A stretch of 64,000 nucleotides of DNA from Convolutriloba macropyga (Eukaryota): contig NC_134481.1 in assembly GCF_964194025.1 (NCBI RefSeq), positions 18,848,001 to 18,912,000 on the forward strand, read 5' to 3'. Both the position numbers and the translations under genes were made by a program. The stretch's first letter is position 1, and each line of letters begins with the position of its first letter. The notes beneath the pieces are model-generated. The model was not told where the DNA came from and made no database searches. It saw only the letters and a list, made by a program, of their open reading frames with translations. Below are positions 1-32,000 of the stretch, one piece after another.

Positions 1-1568
1 TTTATAAAGTGGAAAAAGTCCTTACTGACTCTAACTACATCATTCGAAAAGTAAATACGAATTACACCCAATGTGTTCATCGCATCAGACTGAAGCCAAT
101 TAAACCAAGTGAACCTCCTGAAGATCTCGAAGTCATCAATCCTGTAAACTTTCAACCTGATCCGCTGAGAAGACAACACATGGAACCTGACCTATTTGAT
201 AAACATATCCCAGAATTAATCAATGAGCAAGAAACAGAGATACAACAATCCAAGAAAGTGAAACAAGATCCAGTCAGAGTGACCATAAATGTTCCTCTAG
301 GTGGACCATTAGCAGGACCAGCAGTAGCAGCACCTCCAGCAGCACCACCGGCCCCACCAAGGGTAGTAGCACCAGCAGTTAGACCACGAACTGCCCCAGT
401 TAATCTTCCAGTAATTGATTCCTCAAGCTCAGATGAAGCAATTCCAAACTTATTTAATGAAAATAGCAGTTCAGACGAAAATTTAGCTGACCTGAACCTG
501 GATGCAGAACAAATTGCCCGAATACCAGTTAACCCGTTAATTGCTGACGAAATTAGACATCAAGAACCAGAAGTTCGTGTTCCTCTTGTGTCATCTTCAT
601 CAGATGATGAAATGTTCCTACCAGCTCAACAGCCTCGCCCGTCAATAGAACCATTTGATAGTGACTCGCCTCCAGAAACACGTGAAGAACAATTTGCGTT
701 AACTGATAGAAAATTAAGAGCCCGACCTTATCACCCTAAACGACAACCAGAAAAAAGTGCTTTCAAATCACCAGAATACCAACAGAAGAAAAATTTCCAA
801 GGATTTAAAATAACTAGACAAATATGGTTACACGATAAAGATAGAAATCCTTACCTAACCAACCAAGTTAGAAGATCAGGCAGTCCTAGACCAAAAAACG
901 CACGTGCCAGACTGGAACAAGAAGAAAAACGTGAAGCAATAAAAGAATCAGCACAAGCAGCACAACAGTCAAATACACCAAGTAGAGAGACAAAACTAGA
1001 TCAAGTTAGAGCAAGTATAGCAAAATATTCAGGGAAAAAGCCCAGCAGTTCAGCAAACAAACCAGTAACTAGATCTCAATCGAAAAAATCTTCACCAGGC
1101 TCATCTAATCAAAATTTAAACTATTTTAGTCAAGAAATAAATGCAACATATCTAAGTTCTCCAACAGATATCTTATATTCACCACACTCTTTTGCACACT
1201 GTATATCAGCAGACCTTGCAATGGCAAAGGGATTAGCCCGACAAGTCAAAAGCTGGTACCCAGCAGCCCCAAGTGCAATTAGACTTAGATATCCACCAGA
1301 TAGTGGCTCAGTTCTAATCTACTTCGACCCCATTTCCGAACGTTATATCTTCAGTTTAGTTACAAAATTCAGATACTACCACAAACCCACTTACGAATCA
1401 GTATTAGCAAGTCTCTATGAACTGAGGTAAATAGTAATAGATGCAGGAATAACACACTTAAGTCTTCCAAAACTCGCCAGTGGCTATGATAAATTAGATT
1501 TTAACATCTTTTTTGAGCTTATATGCCAAGTCTTCGACCCTCTACCCATAACCATCTTTATCCATTAG
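1..1568 (+). pseudogene. 3' end of Ty3/Gypsy pol (integrase C-terminal domain, low-complexity linker, C-terminal TARG1/OARD1-like macrodomain); one in-frame stop at 1428-1430
   Basis: N-terminal VEKVLTDSNYIIRK...VHRIRLKP resembles the GPY/F-type integrase C-terminus. The C-terminal part (AHCISADLAMAKGLA...YIFSLVTK...HKPTYE) continues in frame past TAA as IVIDAGITHLSLPKLASGYDKLDF...ITIFIH*, ending at 1568. Confidence 0.8.
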
Positions 1569-1839: not shown

Positions 1840-4145
1840 GTTCACGTCAGGAAAATAGTCATAAAATTGTGAAAAATGCCCCGTTCATCCCAAATTTTTG
1901 CGCTGCAGCATTTCTCAAGCCGAGAAACCGACCTGCAAATTTTGAAGCGATTTGGAGAACTTTCAAAATTGAGTGACGCTGGAGCCCTCAATTTTTGACA
2001 CTTTTCGAATCCGCTCGAATTCAATGATAACTCCTACAAAAAACCTCCAATTGACCCATTTTATAGCCCTGGATCATCCTACTGCTCACGCTTGACATTC
2101 CAGTACCCAAAAATTCCGTCAAAAATCAATAAAAGTTGAGTTATGACAAAAATTCCGAACCCTACCAAAGTGCGTTAAATTGATTAAAATGTAGTGTAAA
2201 TTATATCCCAAAAACATGCCAAAATCTGTCCCAAATGTCCTCAGCAGCTACTCCCAACTGCCACCCACATGGTACAACCTCAAACGACCATTAAAACCCA
2301 ATATTTCCAAGTATATGTTGAAAAATGACAAAAAAACGATATTTGAGCTTCTGTTTCAATTCACCGCTTCAAAAATTTTGTCATTTTATTCTCCACCTGA
2401 CCCAATAAAAGCCACCTACACCCCCTACAACCCTAGTGAAACCCCCCACTAGCTTTTGTAGTACCATAAAAACCAGTCCCAGCTCATCCCAGTATCAACC
2501 ATGAAGACTTAAATCCAAATAAGCTCTGAAATCGCCACAATTTTGTCAGGAAAAATTCAGTTATTTCCAGCTAGAGTCAATATTATTCACTTCTGACAGC
2601 AACAATACCATCAGCACGCCCACATCTATAGCTCTCAGAATGTGCACTCCCAGCCCCCTAGTGCCAATACAAGCTGAGAAAAGACTGCCAAAGTAACGAA
2701 AATCACAAAAAATCGAGTGTAATTTCAAGAAAAAGTGATCAAAAATGCATCTTAATACCCGAATATGCCCAATTTTATTGTTAATTCAGTTAGCCCTACT
2801 CATGAGCAGTCCAACCATAGCAATCAATCATTCTGAACAAGTTTTTCATAGCCTCATAGCCAATAACCTATCCCCTATCTGAGCCTTTTCAAAAAACCCA
2901 GGTTCACTGCAGCAAAAACGTTATAACTCGCGAAAAAATAGTTGAAGCTGCCCAAACTTTTGCGCTGCAGGGTTTTTTGAGCCGATAAAGCGATTCACCA
3001 ATTTTGAGCTCAATCGAAGCATTTTAAAAATTGAGTGACGCTGGGCCCCTCAATTTTGGAGACTTTTTGAAAATTCACGCACATGTTCATAAAATCCAAA
3101 ATATGATCAAAAAGCCGATATTATTAGCTTAAGACATCCGCATGCTCAAGTTCTACACGCCCATACCAAAAATATTGAAAATTGTTCAGTAAAATGTTGA
3201 AATAATAGTAAAAAACTGAAGCCTACCAAACTCTTCTCAAATTTGCCAAAGTAGAGCCAAAATTAGACTATAAAAAAGTATCAAATAGCCGAATTATGAG
3301 CCCATATTCAATATTCAGTCTCCCTAGTAGTTGTCCAAGCCTAATAAACCAATAAAATTGCATAGAAATTCATAAATGTTGAAAAAAATGAAAAAATCGA
3401 AAATTGCACATATTTCACAAAATTTGGTCCGAAATTTTAAAGTGAAAAACTCAACATATTATAGTCAAATCATGCATTACTCCACACCAAAAGCTGCCAC
3501 CAACATAGTACTCACTAGTATGCCCCACAATTACTGTCAAAAAGCAATTATCTCCAATCTATGTCAACTTGTGCACAAAACACGATGCTTCACAAGTAAA
3601 AATCTAGTAAATTTCACAGAAAAACTGGCACAAAACACATATTACTCAACTTCAAACCTACCAAAATGCTACCCCTGATAGCCACAGATATCAGTACTAA
3701 CAGTTAGCACCTGATTTAGGCCACTAGAGAATCACCAGACTGACACATGTCTCGACGAAGCTCAATTAGTGGAAAAATCATGCCTGCAAATTAGCATTTT
3801 GGACGCAAAAATCAATGTTCTGACCCGATAAATAACTTCAAACCCTATAATTCACTAATATACATTAGTACCAAGCACAGACAGTACCATTTTAACCATT
3901 CAATACCGATAATGTATGAACAGTGACGACTTATTCAGACCGAAATTTCATGATTCAAAAATAGCCATGTTCAGATCCCGAAAACAATCATAACTTTGCG
4001 AAAAATGCTTAAATTGCGCCAAATTTTTGCGCTGCAGGGTTTTTTAAGACACAGAAGCGACCTGCCAATTTTGAGCCCGATTGGAGCAATTTAATAAATT
4101 GAATGACGCTGGAGCCCTCAATTTTTCGCATTTTTCGGTTTTTCA
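1840..4145 (+). repeat. Three diverged ~1.06-kb-period repeats in the pol-env spacer, with a conserved core and hairpin
   Basis: TTTGCGCTGCAG recurs at ~1897, ~2959 and ~4025. AAATTGA(G)TGACGCTGG.CCCTCAATTTT recurs at ~1963, ~3026 and ~4096. Confidence 0.8.
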
Positions 4146-5217
4146 TACATCAGTAAAAAAGTTGACCAAAAAGTGCCCAAAAACCTGAATTTATTGCATA
4201 GTTATTCCCCACCGATGTCTACTGAGCGGGCCAAGCCAAAAAATTTGCCCAAAGTTCAATAAAAATTGAAAAATTCACATATTTGCCACACTAGCCCTGA
4301 TGCGGAAAAATGACCAAAATTACATGTGAAAATTAGTACCAAATACTCTTCCAAACCAGCCCAAATTACACACAAGTGCTGCTAACAACCAGATTAAGTA
4401 TCTAGAATCATTAGAACCAGTCTATGATCAATAATTCACAAGTAAATTAAAGTTAATGCCCAAAATTCAAAAAAGTCGTGATGTCACCAAAATTTCACTT
4501 TCACAAATATGTCATTATAAAGTCACACACTGCAATTAAAATGTTACCACATGCTCACACACTTCACAGCTGCTAGTTCCAACATTCTAATCCAATTAAG
4601 AAAGCTACAATTGACAAATAATAAGTAAAAACTCACCAATGACTGCAACTACACTACATGATAATGAAAAAAATTGAACTAAAACTAGTTAATTTTCATC
4701 AGCACACCCTTATCACTCAGCAAATTCAGGCACTAACTGATAACACACGCACCGAACAACGCTGAAAAGCCATAACACTCAGTCACTACTACCACTGACA
4801 TCTACTTATTAGTTAAACACTCACTAACTGTCCCATTTTCCCCTATTTACTCCCTGAAAAACTCGAAAAAACATGTAAAGACTGCAAAATTCGACCCCCC
4901 AACCACTATCCCCATAATCACACGTCCATCAGTCAACCAAATAACTACACTTCAACATGTTTAAACACCATATTTAGTAGTAATATCAATAAACATACAC
5001 ATCAACACACATGATCACAAAATAAAGTACACCTGAAATGAACAAACATCACATAAACAAGTGCCATATTAAGAAAACTAGAACTAGAAGCCTGAGTACA
5101 GTAAATAAATGAATAAATAAACACCGGAAGACCAAAGAGAACCAGTTGAAACACTCAGAAGCGCCACATCAGTAGAAGATTGTCCTGAAACATAGTTGAT
5201 ATTATTGAAATACGAAA

Positions 5218-7501
5218 ATGTTACTTACAATTGTGTTAAATCTCGTACTTTTCGGCCCCACTTTTGAGACTCCGATTAACACAGCAGCAGCTCTGGATAA
5301 AGGAATCATCTTCCTTAAGGAAGGAAAAATTCTAATTACCGAAAAGTTCATTAACGTGGAATTTTTAGTACCGTTTCCTCGTTATAATTTTACGATCAGA
5401 CAACAAGTAGAGACTCTACTTAATGAACTCTCCAAAAAGTGGATCACGCAATCAGAATTTTGCAACCTAACATACAGCACTACATATCGGAATCAAACAG
5501 ACGCCTTCAATGTTGATTGGCTTTACACAAAGATACTCAATTCTAAACAATAGAAGCCGAAAGTCCTTAAATTACGCAACGAGACTGAAAAACTCCTTAC
5601 CAGAGTCGAAGAAGACCCTCACAATCGACAAAAACGAGCCGCCCCGCTTGCAATTGCAGCCGCAGTCGCTGGAATTGGACTTTTCGGTCCAGGAATAGCA
5701 ATGAGCAGCGGAGGATGCGGTGGAATCACAGGAATTTTCGGATCTTGTCAGCGAACGTCTCAAAACGCTGAAAATATCGATCGATTAGCTAACAGTTTCA
5801 ATAGCCTCAACGACTATGTCATGGAAATCGGAGCACAAACCGATAAGAAATTTTTCCTAGTTGCTGACGAACTTGCAAAGGTTTACAAAGTTCAAAACGA
5901 AATGCAAGAAAACCAGAACAGAAACTGGAAACTAGTAGAGAAACAGTTTGCAATTATAGATCATAATCTGAATGCACTAGCCTCCTGTATGGAAATTCAA
6001 TTATCACAACAACAATTGAACTTTAACTTTGACACAGCAGCATCATTACTTCTTGCTCTTTACGCAGATATCAAAAGTTACAGAGCAGCCTTATATTCTT
6101 TCCGAATTAATGTTATAAATGCAATTCCTACTTTACTTGATAAACGTCTTCCAATCTCATTAGTACCTCGTAAATCTTTGATAAAGATCCTTGATGCAGT
6201 CCATGATAGCCAAAAGAACGCCCCAGATCGTCTAACTTTGGCAATACCCATGACTGACATACTTTCGTACTACGATGCGAAATTAGTACAAGAGATTTCG
6301 ACAGTTGAAGACGGACTTTTACTGACACTAGCCATTCCCCTAGCCTCTAGCCAGACAGTGTTTGAAGTTTATCGTGCAATAGTAATCCCTATGCCTCAGA
6401 AGGACTCTGTAGATGCCTTACGATATGTGATAGAGGGAGAATACTTAGCAATATCAGAAGGACAGATGGAAACCACAGTACTGACGAAAGCTCAGTATGA
6501 CAACTGTCTTGGATCGCCACGATACCGAATCTGTCATGAGACAATGGAAACCCACCTTGGATTCTCATCGTGTCTAGCAACCCTCAAATTTCACCACACA
6601 ATCTCAGCAGTGAAAGTATGTGATATAGAGAAGGTTGTGTTACCCAACCCAGAACGAGCACAGAACCTTGGATACGGAATTTGGCTCCTAACATCAGCTT
6701 CAAGTGATTATACCCTTAGTGAGATTGGTACGGATGAAAATGGCCGACACATCAATGTTCCTCATAAAGGTTGTAACATCTGTTTAATCACATTAAAATG
6801 TGGACATACAATGTTCAGTGACCACATTAAAGTTCGAGCTGATTTACAAAGTTGTCAGTACCTTCCAGCAACGAGAATTAATGTAAAATTACCAGATCCA
6901 CTTGCACACTTAATTGACTCAGTACCTAACATAAACGACCTTCCGAAATATGATTCCAGTACTGAAGCAAACCTCGATTTATTGAAGAAAGTTAAAACCG
7001 AATTTATTTACTCGAATAGAAAGTTATCAACAGAGTCACTAGATGCTATAGCAAAGCCAATTACCACCGAAATGAAGTCATTTAAACCAGCACTAATCGA
7101 CAAACTTGAATCCTACGTTCCAATCAAATTTTCTCTCACTAACAATCATAGTCTTTATCGGAAATCTAGCCCTACATATTCTCTTCATGTTCTTATACCA
7201 TAAAGTAGCCTTTGTACGACGAATGGTACCGAATTTCATGAAGCTTAACGGAACCAATGTACCGCTAAACCCAGTAGTTTCCGTACCCAAACATCTGAAA
7301 GCAGATGTAGTCACAACTCTAGCCAAACAACTCAAGCAACCGCCAACAGTCATTTCCCCAGAAGAACTTGGAACCCTCAAACGACAACGGAGAAATTCCG
7401 TGCCCGCAACTTCTACCATGTCACTCAACACCATGGACCGATTCAACACAGACGATGAACTGGACCATCAAGCCCAACCGCGAGATGAAAGTATTCTTTA
7501 A
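5218..7501 (+). pseudogene. Env-like class I viral fusion glycoprotein (in-frame TAG at 5551-5553, frameshift near 7135)
   Basis: Signal peptide MLLTIVLNLVLFG; furin site RQKR (5626-5637) followed by hydrophobic AAPLAIAAAVAGIGLFG; heptad-like region; Cys-rich ectodomain; TM helix LTIIVFIGNLALHILFMFLY and cytoplasmic tail in the shifted frame (ORF 7106-7501). Confidence 0.8.
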
Positions 7502-8143
7502 GTTCATGAAAGTCTTAAATAGTTCAACAAGTATTAACCCTTTAAATGATTCAGCATCCCTTCATTCATTAAGTTCTAATCATAAGTGATTTAAACCAAA
7601 TCAGTACTCCAACCCAAGAAATTAACCAGAGCTGTTAACCACTTATTTAGCCAGTTCAAATGTTTTCAAAGTTTAGAGGTATTATTCAGTGAAATAACCA
7701 TGATAAATTTCAGTGCTAATCTTAATGTGTTCTCTAAACCCTAACTCTACCTTTTATTCTCACTATTTCCTCAACATTAGCGCATTTTGACATCTTTAAC
7801 GTTCCTTCAAAGCTCTTAATCTTGTCTTAACTTTCCTCACGTTAACCTTTATCTCCATTTGTCTTAACTTAAACTTTATTTCTTCAATTTCTTTCATTAT
7901 CTTTAACTTAAATGCTTTCGTTCCAAAACTCTTTTCTAAGAAAACATAAATTGGGTGGCTCCAACAAAAATATGTGTATATCCTTATACTTGTGCAGATT
8001 ATATGTTTTATAGAAAAAACTGTAAAAAACCAGTTCCTTCTCAAAGTTTTCATGGAGTCGGGTAGTGTCACATAGCAACGGCACCAGCCTTGACGATACT
8101 GAATCGTCGTTGCTTTGTTAGCAAAAAATGATGTTATAGTTGA

Positions 8144-8632
8144 TTAATAGCCGCACAGCGTTAGCTGGGGCTATTATTGGCCTTCTCTTGGTTTTTTTAC
8201 AATTCAAAGAATTTGAATTGTATTGGGGCGCTGTCTTTTTTTTGAGATCTGTTCACACATTTTCATGACTTTTGAAGTCAAATTGGAGTAGTGATTTTGG
8301 TCACGCCGAAACAGGAAGTGGAGTGAAAAAGCGAGTGGTTTTGCGGCGTGAAATTTTTTCGCTCCAAATTTAAAGTAGAGTGAGAAAACGGTGTTTGAAC
8401 AAAAATTCGCTTTCTCGCTAGTGGTTTTTTGTTCACATGCGACAATTTCACTTTGATTTTCACTGTTTTTTCGATTTTTTGGGTCGGTTTTTTTTCTAAA
8501 TGGTTTTCCCAATCCATTCATAGTCCGTTCTAGGTCTAGTTTTCTGTTAAGTCAATGAAAATTCTTTGAATTGTACGTCAGGACTTGTCCTGCTATGTTT
8601 TTTTATTTCGTCGTCAATCTGGCAGTTATGTT
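8144..8632 (+). mobile_element. Non-autonomous Helentron-associated (HINE/DINE-1-like) element, family A
   Basis: 5' TTAATAGCCGC...GGCTATT hairpin; internal module shared with ~19820-20370, ~37920-38470, ~44810-45190 and ~58360-58680; 3' ...TATGTTT end. Confidence 0.55.
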
Positions 8633-8787
8633 TACGAATTGAGTTTCTGGTTCTCTTTGTCAGGTTTACTTCGGCATGATATTGTAACTTATCAGCGCAA
8701 AGTAAGGGCATTGGATTATTGACGCGCAGTAATTTGTCGGGGTTTTCTACTGGTTATATTGCATGTCTCAGCTAAAAGATGGGTCTC

Positions 8788-9651
8788 TGTCACGCCCCTA
8801 TTTCGTTCCTTATAGTTACGTGATGATTTTCCCTTAAATATCCATAAATAAGTGCTATAATTTAGTTCATATTCAGTTAGTTTCAAGGCCATATATAGCC
8901 AGTATCTCCATCTAGGCCTGTAACCCCTAATTTGTTTATGTTTATGAAAAACAACCGCATATTGACAGTTTTACTAGCAAACACTTCAAGTGCCTAAAAG
9001 CCTCAATATTTACTTTTTTGAGTTTCTTGATGATAAATTCACATAATCAGTAAATAACTTCATGAGAGATTATGTACTTGGTGAAGTAATTATTCTGATG
9101 AAGTAGGTGCTAATACGGAATTGTATATGTACTGAACAAACACCAAGAGACGTATAAAAGCCGGAAATTGCCCAACTTGTAAATCAGTAAATATTTGCGA
9201 AGGACCAATACAACTGAAGGCACAGTCCTGCGGAACCCACTATCACCAGAACACCGGAGAACCAGCCTGACAATCAGTTGCCTATCATCTCATAAAAACT
9301 TGATAAAAATTGAGAAACTTCTTGTTAAAATTATTAAACAATTCTTGCTAAAATAATTAAAGATTGAACTGGAAATTCTCTTAAAACCTCCAAGTTTGAT
9401 AAACTAAGTTACAGAAGAAATAGCGACTAACTTAACACTAAAATGCAAGGCAAACTAGTGGATATATCACGCATCTGAACCGCTCAATAAAAGGCTATTA
9501 CTAGCTTATTTTATTCAAAATATATCTGCTAAAAATCGCACTGTGAAACACCAAAATAAGTCCTTGTAAAATGCCAATTATTCAAGTTAATTACTTCTAA
9601 TATAAACCTCAATAACACCACGAGGAACACTATATAAATCAGTGCGTAACA
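8788..9651 (+). mobile_element. Solo LTR (864 bp) with 5-bp target-site duplication GTCTC
   Basis: Termini TGTCACG...CGTAACA (6/7 inverted match); GTCTC at 8783-8787 and 9652-9656; internal TATAAAA (~9153) and AATAAA (~9486). Confidence 0.8.
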
Positions 9652-26000: not shown

Positions 26001-29000
26001 CTAATGCCAAAAAAGCAATGAGAGTGAGGCGAAAACTCTACAAGTGTTCAAAATAAAGAACTCTAAGGCCTTAAAGCCAGGAGAGAAAATGACACAAGTT
26101 CAGCTCTGAATCATAGCTCTGTGGCCAAATAACCACGAGAGCCAGATTTTATGGTCCTATTTTAAAGCCTCAAAGCCCAGAGAACTCTGCAGACTTAAAT
26201 TTAACTAAAAAAATTTCTGTGGCCAAATAGCCACGAGAGTCAGCTTAGCTTTGAAGGTCGTATTGAAAGCAACTCTGAAGTCCTTAAACCAGTAAGGTCG
26301 CCTATTACCACCAACAGCTTTTAACACCAACTCTAATGCCAAAAAAGCAATGAGAGTCAGACGAAAACTCTACCAGTGTTCAAAATAAAGAACTCTAAGG
26401 CATTAAAGCCAGGAGAGAAAGAGACTCAAGTTCAAGTATGGATAATAGCTCTGTGGCCAAATAGCCACGAGAGCCAGTTTTGATGGTGTTAGTCAAAAGC
26501 CTCAAAGCCCGGAGAACTCTGCAGACTTAAATTTAAAAAATATATATATAAATCTGTGGCCAAATAACCACGAGAGCCAGATTTTATGGTCTTATTTTAA
26601 AGCCTCAAAGCCCGGAGAACTCTGTAGACTTAAATTTAAAAATGAATTTCTGTGGCCAAATAACCACGAGAGTCAGCTTAGTTTTAAATGTCGCATGAAA
26701 GTAACTCTGAGGTCCTTAAACCAGTAAGGTCTCCGATTACCACCAACAGCTTTTAACACCAACTTTAATGCCAAAAAAGCAATGAGAGTCAGACGAAAAC
26801 TGTACAAGTGTTCAAAATAAAGAACTCTAAGGCATTAAAGCCAGGAGAGAAAGAGACTCAAATTCAGCTCTGAATAATAGCTCTGTGGCCAAATAACCAC
26901 GAGAGCCAGATTTTATGGTCTTATTTTAAAGCCTCAAAGCCCGGAGAACTCTGCAGACTTAAATTTAAATAAATATCACTTTCTGTGGCCAAATAACCAC
27001 GAGAGCCAGATTTTATGGTCTTATTTTAAAGCCTCAAAGACTGGAGAACTCTGAGACTTAAATTGAACTAAAAAAAATTTCTGTGGCCAAATAACCACGA
27101 GAGTAAGCTCAGTTTTAAATGTCGCATGAAATGAAAGCAACTCTGAGTCCCTTAAACCAGCAAGGTCTCCTATTATCAACAACAGCTTTTAACACCAACT
27201 CTAATGCCAAAGAAGCAATGAGACTCCTACGAAAACTTTGCTAGTGTTAAAAATAAAGAACTCTAAGGCCTTAAAGCCAGGAGAGAAAGGGACTCAAGTT
27301 CAGGTATGAATAATACCTCTGTGGCCAAATAACCACGAGAGCCATATTTTAGAGTCTTATTTCAAAGCCCGGAGAACTCTGGAGACTTAAATTTAACTAA
27401 AAGTAAATTTCTGTGGCCAAATAACCACGAGAGTCAGCTTAGCGTTAAAGGTCGTATTGAAGGCAACTCTGAGGTCTCCAATTACTAACAACAGCTTTTA
27501 ACACCAACTCTAATGCCAAAAAAGCAATGAGAGTGAGGCGAAAACTCTACAAGTGTTCAAAATAAAGAACTCTAAGGCCTTAAAGCCAGGAGAGAAAATG
27601 ACACAAGTTCAGCTCTGAATCATAGCTCTGTGGCCAAATAACCACGAGAGCCAGATTTTATGGTCCTATTTTAAAGCCTCAAAGCCCAGAGAACTCTGCA
27701 GACTTAAATTTAACTAAAAAAATTTCTGTGGCCAAATAGCCACGAGAGTCAGCTTAGCTTTGAAGGTCGTATTGAAAGCAACTCTGAAGTCCTTAAACCA
27801 GTAAGGTCGCCTATTATTAACAACAGCTTTTAACACCAACTATAATGCCGAAGAAGCAATGAGAGTCAGACGAAAACTTTGTAGTGTTAAAAATAAAGAA
27901 CTCCAAGGCCTTAAAGCCAGGAGAGAAAGAGACTCAAGTTCAGCTCTGAATAATAGCTCTGTGGCCAGATAACCACGAGAGCCAGTTTTGATGGTCTTAG
28001 TCAAAAGCCTCAAAGCCCGGAGAACTCTGGAGACCTAAATGTAACTAAAAATAAATTTCTGTGGCCAATTGATAGTCAGACCAAAACTTTCCTGGTGATC
28101 AACATTGGGAATTTTAAGGCTTCAAAGCCAGGAGAGCTATGGTGACTGAGTCCGGGGTTTGGATAACAACTCTGTGGCCAAATAAAGGCAAGAAACAAAT
28201 TTGAAAGTCTAGGGTTTTAAAAACAAGAGAATTCTAGGTTTATATTTTTATCAAATAGCAAAAACCTCAATTGAAGTACAAAATAGTGAATTATTCAATT
28301 GAATTGTCTCAAGTTTAAAAAATCATTACAAAATAACAGAATTGGAAACTGGAAAACAACTTTAAACGTTTAAGCTTGGTTGGTCAGTTTTTGATTTTCA
28401 AGAGTGATCAAAGGAAGTGCACAGTTTTATGGCAAGCGAATCATCTGAGTTTTGCATCTTGACACGAAAAACTTTTTGAAGGCTGCTAGCACTAACAAGA
28501 TTTTCGGTCTTCGTATTCTGCAAACGATACAGAATACCTTTGACGGGACCAATTTCCTCAACAATTTTATGCATTTCGATGACTGCGTTGGTCCTCAATA
28601 TGAACGGCTCCTCTGGTAAGGAAACGAAGTACATAATTTGCCCGAATTTCACTTCACCTTCGACGGAAAAAGACACAAAACTGTTACAATCACCAGACAT
28701 TGGTGCGCGAGAGTAGCATGGAGAATCAAAATAGACGTTATTCACTTTCTGTCTATTGAAAAATGTGGCGTCAAAATAGAGATCTCGGCCTTGCTTTAGA
28801 GACACTGTCTCCTTCATAGCATGATGATAACTTGAATCATCTTCAATATCTTGTCCCATTAGGTTGAGCCAATGATTCTTAAGAAAATCGTTTTTTAATT
28901 TTGTGTCATATAGCCAATGGATTTGTAATAGTCTACGGCATATTATTTCAACTTCATGATGAGAACCAGAAAAATTTTCGCCCAGTACTCTATTAGCGGA

Positions 29001-32000
29001 CTCAAAACTCATTGCTGAGCAAGTAAAGAGTGGACCAAACCTTTTAACTTGGTGGCTGAGATGGCGAAGACAATGAGTGTTGATTGTTTCAATTTTTTCG
29101 TTTCCTCCGAAAAAGTTTACGATTTTTCTACAGAAACAATCCAGAAGTTTTTCAGCCTGTTCAACATTTGCACTTTCACTGGACTCGAGAAGAAGTCTCA
29201 CGCCAAAGACAAAATTAAGCAACTCTTCGTAAATGTTTGGCGAAAGTAACTCATAGAAAAGAACAGGTGCTATATAGAACATCCAGTTAAAAAATTCATT
29301 GGCTTTGAATTGCCCCATTTCCTCTAAACATCGAATTTTCCGCGAATAAGCAATCATCTCTCTCGGACACGCTAATTGCTTCACTGATTCATTTAGAGAA
29401 ATACGTGAAGAAAAATCAAGTAAAGTACGAACACGCTTTAGTATCTCCGGGAAAACTCCAAGTAGCACGCAGTGCATGTAGTCAATGGGAGCCGCCAAGG
29501 GTAAGCCTTCTATTATCAGCGAAAAGGCACTTCGTCCTTTCACTCCCACAACATTGGCCACTGTATCTTTACCAAACGACTCAGCGTATTTCACATAATT
29601 GTCGTGGATGTTAGGTTCGCGTATTTTCCCTTCCTGAAGATACGGATAATACGCATGAGTACGACCAATAGTAACACCTTCTGCTTCACAGTAATGGCAC
29701 CCAAAAAAACCATTGAATTTAAACATGTTGAGAATGTGACCTTTGGCACATAAATCAGCAATGAGAAGTATACATTTGAACTTCACAAAAATCGAGGTCT
29801 TATTGCAAACGGGAACTTCAACTTCCGAGACCAACTCTCCGCGCAACAGGGGAACGATTAGATCCCAATCGGGGGTTTCGGCACCAACATGTAAAGCTGC
29901 TAAGACAATATTTTTGCGAGCTGTTCGAAGAATAGGAGGAAGATCAACAATTTGCATCCAAATTGGCCAAAGCTCTTTCTTGAAAGATGATTTTTTAATA
30001 TTTACACCATCAGTAGATAGAATCAAACTTAATTGGACTGAATTGTTTCTAATTTTTGGTATTGGAGCTGTATTTGAATTTAAATCGCTTTCTGGATATC
30101 GTTCTCTGTAGGAGGCATAGTTGAAAATTTGGTCAAAATTCCTGCATACGATATCACCAAGTTGGAAGCGAAAATTCAATACACAGAAACAACTATTCTC
30201 AACTTTTATCAAAGCCCTCACGGAAGACTCAAAGTTTGACTTCATCTTTTTAATGAAAGATGAACCACAGGGTAAACAGTTATCACTCGGAAGTAGGGCT
30301 TTCACTGTAGAAAAAACTAGCGTAGAACCTTCGTCAGACAAATGTAGTTTAGAACACAGCATTTCAAGCAGTTTACATGCATCAGAAACTTCAACAACAC
30401 TGCCAGCAAAAAGTTTTTCACTAATAGCATCTTCTTCATTGTTTATTAATGACATACTGTCTTGAGCGCAAATTGAAGATACTGAGCAGTCAAGTACACA
30501 GGGGAATTTAGCACAAGGAGAAGACACTCGCGGTACCTCTAAAATGAAGCTGCGAGAATCATCACTCAACAATGCGCATTGTTCTACATTCTGAATTGGG
30601 GCAACGAAACTGTCAACATTTGTTTCAAGAACTTCAACAAAAGGGTCTGCAAAAGTTGCATCATCAGTTTTGTCACCTGCAATTTCCGTTGAATCAAAAT
30701 CTGTAAAACTTATGGGAGCAAGAATTTTAGGTTTGGCATATAAATCGTTACTGAGTCTCACAAGATGATTTCGACGGAACCTCTGTTTTTTCCGCTTCGG
30801 TTGTGCACATAGCTCATTACTTTCAATCAGAGCTTTTAAGCAAAATTCCTCTATAATAATTGTCAAAAGTTCTGAGAAAATCAAATTTGCATTTTCCGTA
30901 ATTATTTCGCAAGTTGCACAACGACATTGATTTTGTTCAAAGAAGTCGGTGCCGTACTTCACTAAAATTTCCTGCCCACAAAAAATGCGTTGCTTTGTTT
31001 TCAGTTGCACGATACCAGTTATACTGGAAAAGTCGTAGTCGCAATTTGGCGAACAGTCCGAATTCACAAATCTTATAGGCCCAACAAGTAATAAGTTTTC
31101 TCCGGTTCTTTCCGACCGCATAACTGACCAGTCTGTGACACCATCTGGAATTGGTCTCACAAAACCAATTGGTTTGCCGCGAAGAACAGTGTTGACAGCT
31201 AGAGCCTCTTGTCCGCAATACATTAAACGATACCCATTATACTTATCGTAAGCGATGTGAAAATCAGGTTCCAACGACCCATACGCATGGCAAAGTTTTT
31301 CATAAGTGTCCTTCCAAACATTTTCGGTTGATATTCTCTTATTGAAAATTCGCTCAGACAAAGGCCTAACTAATTCTTCAGCTGATCTGAATTTTGTTTC
31401 AACGTATCGTTTTACCGCAAACAAATCGCATTGTGCCAAAATTGGCCAGTCAACTTTCTTTGACAGCATATCTTAAAAAAATTTTAAAATGATGACTCTC
31501 TCAGACCAATGTAAAATTCAATGTCAAGAAATAATAGTTTTTTTTATGAACAATCCTGTAAAAAATGAGAACAACAAATGAGATTGCATATGAGATCGAA
31601 ATCCCATATTGAGGCACAAATCATACGAAAGCAAAATCTTACAAAAGCAAGCGAAAACGTAATACAATTGAAAACTTACCAAAGCAACATTAACAAAGAT
31701 GTTACGACCGGCGACGTTATAGAATAAACAACGCTAGCAATAAATAACAACTATATTTAATATACAGAAGCAAACGAGACAACTAATGATATTGCACATT
31801 GGAAAGAAAGCACATGTTTAACGCAAATTAGACGAAAATTTTTCAGTTTCCATATAGAAAACGTAACAGAAAGCATTCGGAGAAACAATAACAAAGGTAA
31901 TATGTCTTTAAATTTCCACAAAACTTGTTAGGGCCGGCGACGTTATAGTATAAACAACGCTAGCAGTAAAATACATTACTGTATTTAATACACAGAAGCA

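Follow-up and report, generated by a model that had tools for sequence, protein, structure and literature searches.

Positions 1131 to 1568 on the forward strand of the window, a stretch of 64,000 nucleotides of Convolutriloba macropyga DNA, encode a confirmed macrodomain of the TARG1 class, though not a canonical TARG1. The host element is an env-bearing Ty3/Gypsy retroelement of about 18 kb, which carries the macrodomain in frame at the C-terminus of Pol. Because variants shared among copies of the element have been purified while singletons are neutral, the macrodomain is useful to the element as a protein, whatever its purpose may be.

Identity and fold of the macrodomain

From window base 3, an open frame extends over 475 codons and reaches a TAA at positions 1428-1430. 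When positions 1131 to 1568 are read with an X at this codon, the translation has 145 residues and includes every motif listed in an earlier note on this DNA; the domain is the last of Pol and ends at a TAG (1566-1568). The read-through translation was compared with known proteins by phmmer, and human TARG1/OARD1 is the best match in the PDB (E 4.3e-16, query residues 17-144, spanning the break), while the second-best macrodomain family there, DarG (5m31), reaches only E 0.015. The earlier note had looked to profile methods for a decision; phmmer gave one in favour of TARG1, but the Pfam Macro profile found no match to the macrodomain of this family, either in the window copy or in an unbroken natural copy (L042). 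The same profile matches the macrodomain of a sister-family copy at E 1e-5.

The fold leads to the same assignment. An AlphaFold model of the L042 macrodomain, with an alignment of 72 rows behind it, has a pLDDT of 92.9, and its closest structures are those of TARG1: the top Foldseek match is 4j5s (TM 0.86), and in VIA comparisons the model superimposes on TARG1 with Z 24.1 and an rmsd of 1.3 A over 141 residues, versus Z 21-22 for DarG and about 16 for alphavirus macrodomains. Matches in the ESM Atlas belong exclusively to OARD1-like or Macro clusters. The earlier note had spoken of a TARG1/DarG-type domain, and only the first half of that name survives. A DarG antitoxin is ruled out by the retrotransposon Pol context and by the lead of TARG1 in both sequence and fold.

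Passages of PMC6397177 and PMC9967889 describe TARG1 as acting through K84, which forms a lysyl-ADP-ribose intermediate that is resolved by D125, in a pocket lined by D20, H32, C33, S35, T83 and P118. Equivalents of all eight residues are present in the window's family, including the full set of distal-ribose and adenine contacts (D20, H32, C33, S35, T83 and P118). On the forward strand of the window, alignment with TARG1 places the HCxS distal-ribose loop (human H32, C33 and S35, as numbered in the passages of PMC6397177) at 1197-1208. Alignment and comparison of copies place a TK, whose Lys corresponds to the K84 nucleophile, at 1362-1367, and the phosphate-binding loop PKLASGYD, in which the D125-equivalent Asp is kept and AxG replaces GxG, at 1467-1490. 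In the window copy the resolving Asp falls beyond the premature stop. The retention of both catalytic residues, asserted in the earlier note, holds across the family: among 60 copies chosen through their integrase, 57 of the 58 with letters at the position have the Lys, and 56 of 56 have the Asp.

The element and its copies

In natural copy L042, Pol consists of protease, RT, RNase H, integrase, a linker of about 340 residues and the macrodomain, in that order, and this architecture together with the continuous frame bears out the proposed fusion to Pol. In natural copies, the frames are 424 codons long for gag, about 1930 for pol and 765 for env; LTRs, gag and the pol order PR-RT-RH-IN place the element in Ty3/Gypsy (Metaviridae). 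The window begins near the end of integrase (Integrase_p58_C, PF22938, Pfam E 7e-4, positions 3-98, forward strand), with the rest of gag-pol lying upstream of the window (L031). The frame and the comparison of copies define the linker at 99-1115 (forward strand), a low-complexity, Pro/Ser-rich segment of about 340 codons in the Pol frame that ends in a basic stretch.

Beyond Pol lies a non-coding pol-env spacer of 3.6 kb, which differs in length among copies and in which self-comparison reveals three degenerate copies of an internal repeat, spaced at about 1.06 kb (1889-4139, no strand assigned). It is followed on the forward strand by an env resembling F-type fusion proteins (5209-7498; weak Baculo_F match, E 1.4e-4), a purine-rich tract (8054-8065) and, directly after the tract, the 3' LTR (TG...CA, 8066-9651). 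The 3' LTR aligns with the 5' LTR over 1580 bp at 99.5% identity, which pairs window positions 8074-9651 with L031:1715-3294, upstream of the window. Across the family, the 765-aa env ORF matches Baculo_F weakly, at E 1e-4 to 2e-3 and under the cut-off, and 44 of the 60 copies retain half of env or more; the description of the element as env-bearing is upheld on these grounds.

Of the roughly 1.58 kb of each LTR in the window copy, only about half is matched in most other copies, and part of the LTR resembles dispersed repeats elsewhere in the window. The long LTRs suggest that a repeat was inserted into the LTR of a parent element and then copied to both ends. Farther along the window, on the reverse strand, a 1024-codon open frame (28398-31472) is unrelated to the element.

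The window copy is dead. Its env is broken by one stop and one frameshift, and its pol carries three further stops and one frameshift upstream of the TAA at 1428-1430 (forward strand), which would remove the phosphate loop and the Asp. Comparison of copies shows that this TAA is private: the position is a sense codon, as the earlier note had anticipated, in 29 of 29 other loci and in all 57 of the 60 integrase-chosen copies that have the codon (three lack it). Programmed read-through is ruled out, the position being sense in every other copy examined, and the TAA is either a mutation that followed insertion or an error of assembly.

The element is abundant, with at least 150 copies in the 1.18-Gb genome; all 150 that were scored, out of 768 candidates, match at 86-100%. 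The set of 60 was hand-picked across the ranking of 150 matches from a separate search with the integrase, which avoids choosing copies by the macrodomain itself. The macrodomain is at least 80% complete in 55 of the 60 and 28-74% complete in the other five. A one-off insertion or functionless passenger, to which a broken window copy unrecognised by Pfam might have pointed, is refuted by these counts, by a shared-variant pN/pS of 0.06 (see below) and by the presence of the domain in sister families, and the note's worry on this score is laid to rest.

A connection between macrodomain and env was considered and dropped. Among eight copies with long ORFs there was a hint of one, in that the three without env all had damaged macrodomain ends, but it was lost in the 60 copies: the macrodomain is intact in 29 of 44 env-bearing versus 6 of 8 env-less copies (p 1; 8 of the 60 unclassified). 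Shared macrodomain variants among the env-less copies number 16 synonymous to 3 nonsynonymous.

Selection was examined in the same 60 copies, a shared variant being one present in at least four of them. Singletons are mostly post-insertion changes, while shared variants have been passed on through transposing parents. In the macrodomain, shared variants number 44 synonymous to 9 nonsynonymous (pN/pS 0.06), versus 47 to 161 for singletons (pN/pS about 1.0); Fisher's test gives p 6e-16, and the contrast is large even though shared variants are not independent of one another. Singleton pN/pS lies between 0.85 and 1.2 in every domain, and for shared variants the values are 0.05 in protease, 0.01 in RT, 0.00 in RNase H, 0.02 in integrase, 0.19 in the linker and 0.2 in the connection. 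The purifying selection that the earlier note had proposed to look for is thus evident in the macrodomain.

Relatives and origin

Sister families in the same genome have integrases 69-75% identical to that of the window's family and macrodomains only 33-43% identical. Over all between-family comparisons the macrodomain stands at 33-43%, versus 44-54% for protease, 65-75% for integrase and 70-81% for RT. In the sister loci that were followed downstream, env is present at 51-57% identity in 9 of 9. Most of the sister loci were chosen through their macrodomain; eleven sister rows came from the integrase search, and the six of these that were fetched comprise four with a full macrodomain and two with a decayed one.

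A length-limited homolog search returned a single match, and the full search returned 1939 relatives, with Pfam annotation on 55 of the 150 listed. Among Pol relatives found through RT, 11 of the 120 listed have a C-terminal macrodomain match. In a 71-row tree of RT and RNase H, built with truncated or short-tailed proteins and some near-duplicates omitted and with no named Gypsy reference clades, one RT clade (SH-aLRT 100) has the macrodomain or a remnant of it in 16 of 16 scored members, and outside this clade only one of 52 scored rows has one, a partial domain, while 51 have none. Two tails, P0195 and P0288, look macrodomain-like by eye without a profile match, and decayed domains outside the clade may escape the count.

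Other Gypsy Pols have TARG1-like domains too, some of them at one of three further positions: the domain lies after integrase in P0027 and in P0047 (a protein of the beetle Aromia moschata), after RNase H in P0048 and P0002, and before protease in P0108 and P0123. A second large Gypsy family in the same genome carries one before RT (L158-L160, G000:C12:53454500-53474499, with many further rows). The RT of this family is only 24% identical to that of the window's family, and its 898-aa ORF has a Monjiviricetes-type fusion domain (E 7e-35), a fusogen unlike that of the window's family. Other arrangements were also seen: Gypsy fragments P0043, P0046 and P0063 have an integrase C-terminus, a macrodomain and then a CCCH zinc finger, and the related Pols P0225, P0184 and P0223 have a dUTPase-like domain between protease and RT.

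Where did the domain come from? The host genome has a TARG1 gene of its own (L170; E 1.5e-42 to human TARG1), to which the element macrodomain is 28% identical. In a quick tree of 45 rows, the macrodomains of the lineage group together (96) and are sister to that of the pre-RT family (SH-aLRT 95), apart from the host gene; a larger quick tree of 149 columns supports the lineage weakly (86). A grouping of the lineage with host TARG1 is nevertheless not rejected by an AU test (p 0.25), and the host gene stays a candidate donor. Judging from these sequences, recent capture from the host's TARG1 appears unlikely, and the distribution would fit one old gain followed by vertical descent. The capture of an ADP-ribose eraser that the earlier note envisaged can therefore be kept as a gain by the element lineage but not as a recent event, considering that the domain is old and clade-wide and stands at 28% to host TARG1.

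Proposed function and known systems

What might such a domain do for a retrotransposon? The reading that we modestly favour is that the domain is a hydrolase, likely released by the element's protease, which likely clears host-added ADP-ribose from element RNA, cDNA or proteins. Release is suggested by the candidate retroviral-protease cleavage motif LNYF (1116-1127, forward strand), so assigned by its likeness to other Pol junction motifs; similar motifs, INEI, INSI and VNAI, lie after protease and before integrase. We take L/I/V-N-x-hydrophobic motifs of this kind to be Gypsy protease sites. The motif occurs in 13 of 16 junction windows versus 38 of 151 linker windows, with a p of 1.6e-5 that is overstated, the motif being short, defined by eye on the same related sequences and present in 25% of linker windows; its L and N are conserved in 60 of 60 copies. 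Because a protease-like motif adjoins its N-terminal side, the macrodomain is likely cut free.

In the proposed pathway, Pol would be processed by the element's own protease, and cleavage at the L/I/V-N-x-hydrophobic site would release the macrodomain, about 145 residues long, from integrase to act on its own in the particle or the cytoplasm; this candidate release step seems likely on balance. The free TARG1-type hydrolase would travel with the element RNA. We predict with good confidence that catalysis would follow the TARG1 route, through a Lys-ADP-ribose intermediate resolved by the Asp. Its task would be to strip ADP-ribose placed by host PARPs acting against the element, in line with the counter-defence proposed in the earlier note, and on this last point we lean only slightly towards yes.

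Our best guess for the substrate is base-linked ADP-ribose, on RNA or single-stranded DNA, which is favoured because it is expected to stall reverse transcription. According to passages of a recent preprint (10.64898/2026.03.31.715305), no hydrolase tested other than TARG1 takes ADP-ribose off RNA when the link is to uracil N3 or guanine N1, and K50, R86 and R126 help TARG1 to do so. The equivalents of R86 and R126, among these RNA-binding positions, are basic in the element, and that of K50 is not.

Candidate writers are present in the host genome, which has 19 PARP-domain matches, WWE-PARPs and SF1-helicase-PARP fusions among them (10 PARP-region frames scanned); they are candidates by genome content, and their link to these elements is one that we infer. 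In two host frames (L181:2066-5644 and L187:1972-3558) a PARP catalytic domain is joined to an SF1 helicase (AAA_11/AAA_12), and it is plausible that such fusions are RNA-directed ADP-ribosyltransferases. Three frames with PARP domains also stand in a tandem cluster (L182-L184, G000:C7:32.90-32.95 Mb), one of them with WWE; elsewhere the genome has a further WWE-PARP (L186) and a single frame of 2471 codons that encodes ankyrin repeats together with WGR and PARP domains (L180:968-8380). One point against the favoured reading is that the host already has its own TARG1.

A broader version, which we offer tentatively and consider doubtful, is that animal cells use base ADP-ribosylation of retroelement RNA and cDNA as a general defence, and that Ty3/Gypsy elements have repeatedly picked up a TARG1-type eraser and passed it among themselves; it would occupy four positions in Pol, be released by the protease and be packaged as a counter-defence. 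If this were true, the sister relationship of macrodomains that sit on RTs only 24% identical would imply transfer from element to element.

The alternative that survives best, although we think it unlikely, is the integration aid also raised in the earlier note. The macrodomain would here stay on integrase, in the manner of a chromodomain, and read or erase the ADP-ribose of chromatin, or that of PARP1 at the integration gap. It occupies the same slot as the chromodomains of env-bearing Gypsy elements described in available parts of PMC13524379, the long linker is itself under selection, and TARG1 takes poly-ADP-ribose off PARP1 en bloc according to passages of PMC6397177. The candidate cleavage motif, however, directly adjoins the macrodomain and argues for release, and the positions seen in other elements, before RT or between RNase H and integrase, better fit an enzyme that acts independently of its place in Pol.

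Housekeeping in the particle seems less probable still. The domain would then clear incidental ADP-ribose adducts or metabolites, or bind RNA, with no element-directed defence involved, an idea that agrees with passages of PMC6397177 and PMC9967889 in which TARG1-type enzymes act on O-acyl-ADP-ribose and modified DNA, and with strong purifying selection within the family and no sign of an arms race. Against such a chore stand the faster divergence of the macrodomain between families, compared with protease, integrase and RT, and the lack of a macrodomain in 51 of the 52 related Pols scored outside the clade.

It is more improbable again that the domain in the window's family is a non-catalytic ADP-ribose binder or decoy. 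The family does depart from TARG1 in its AxG loop (Ala in 57 of 57 copies) and in a small residue before the adenine-binding Asp. With AxG in 3 of 3 rows, it does not match the strict TARG1 pattern TKx(30,35)Px[IL]GxGxD, which sister-family copies L078, L081, L084, L085, L091, L094 and L095 satisfy; by a hand count from the listing, 9 of 23 macrodomain rows from the host's own genome match the pattern loosely or not at all with no stop in the loop. The Lys and Asp, on the other hand, are nearly invariant across copies, and other TARG1-like proteins have loops of the AxG type: among the 162 database domains scanned, 115 match the strict pattern, 30 only a relaxed one and 17 neither. In one sister family (L086, L088), His replaces the D125-equivalent Asp in both copies seen. 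Given this family and the two sister loci with decayed domains, catalysis may be dispensable in places.

For the preferred reading, a hydrolase that clears host-added ADP-ribose, the base-linked substrate suggests a biological role for the RNA modification that TARG1 removes according to passages of the preprint 10.64898/2026.03.31.715305. That a transposing family keeps a TARG1-type eraser, under purifying selection at the level of its protease, suggests that LTR retrotransposons face ADP-ribosylation as a pressure. The system also provides an experimental handle, with small soluble domains, a known catalytic dyad, natural variants (AxG, Asp to His) and candidate writers in the same genome.

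Macrodomains are established countermeasures of RNA viruses. Those of alphavirus nsP3 and the TARG1-like domains of virga-, negev- and flavi-like viruses are ADP-ribose modules within a polyprotein, as in the element, and the best BFVD matches of the domain include invertebrate RNA-virus proteins at 24-31% identity. Alphavirus macrodomains belong to another macro class, at about 13% identity and a Z of about 16; for the TARG1-like RNA-virus domains, we found no tested function.

Among retroelements, the closest general plan is that of the env-bearing Ty3/Gypsy 'errantiviruses', which, in the available parts of PMC13524379, have an F-type env and chromodomains C-terminal to integrase. The element shares with them LTR-gag-pol-env, the PR-RT-RH-IN order, an F-like env and a post-integrase module, and it is an errantivirus in the broad sense by virtue of a third ORF with an F- or gB-type fusogen (the weak Baculo_F match). 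No macrodomain is mentioned in the available text and seven supplementary files of that paper, or in passages of its preprint and of PMC12440569, PMC6001957, PMC5408684, PMC6431247, PMC8195603 and 10.1101/2021.11.30.470311, and we found no account of a macrodomain in a Gypsy Pol in the literature covered, which was that outside most subscription journals and the Repbase reports. Some fish (teleost) epsilon-like endogenous retroviruses have extra ORFs for CNPase or macro-domain proteins, according to a passage of PMC4977317 citing Basta et al. 2009. These too are env-bearing retroelements with a macrodomain, but the ORFs are separate and in Retroviridae, whereas the present domain is in frame in a Ty3/Gypsy Pol, the comparison being one of descriptions and not of macro class. 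Macrodomain ORFs in fish endogenous retroviruses were thus already known, and it is the TARG1-class domain in a Gypsy Pol for which, within the sources covered, an earlier description was not found.

Bacterial DarG (PDB 5M3E, 5M31, 5M3I) has the same macro class and catalytic Lys, with the Z of 21-22 given above, but is only 20-22% identical, and the element domain sits in a retrotransposon Pol without a DarT partner or antitoxin tail. Human TARG1/OARD1/C6orf130 (PDB 4J5Q, 4J5R, 4J5S; ALC1-like class) has the fold in common with the element domain at about 30-32% identity, together with the HCxS loop, the TK nucleophile and the PxL..G.D segment with its resolving Asp. The two differ in that TARG1 is a stand-alone host gene with a GxG loop, while its counterpart, of predicted activity, has an AxG loop and is part of a retroelement polyprotein.
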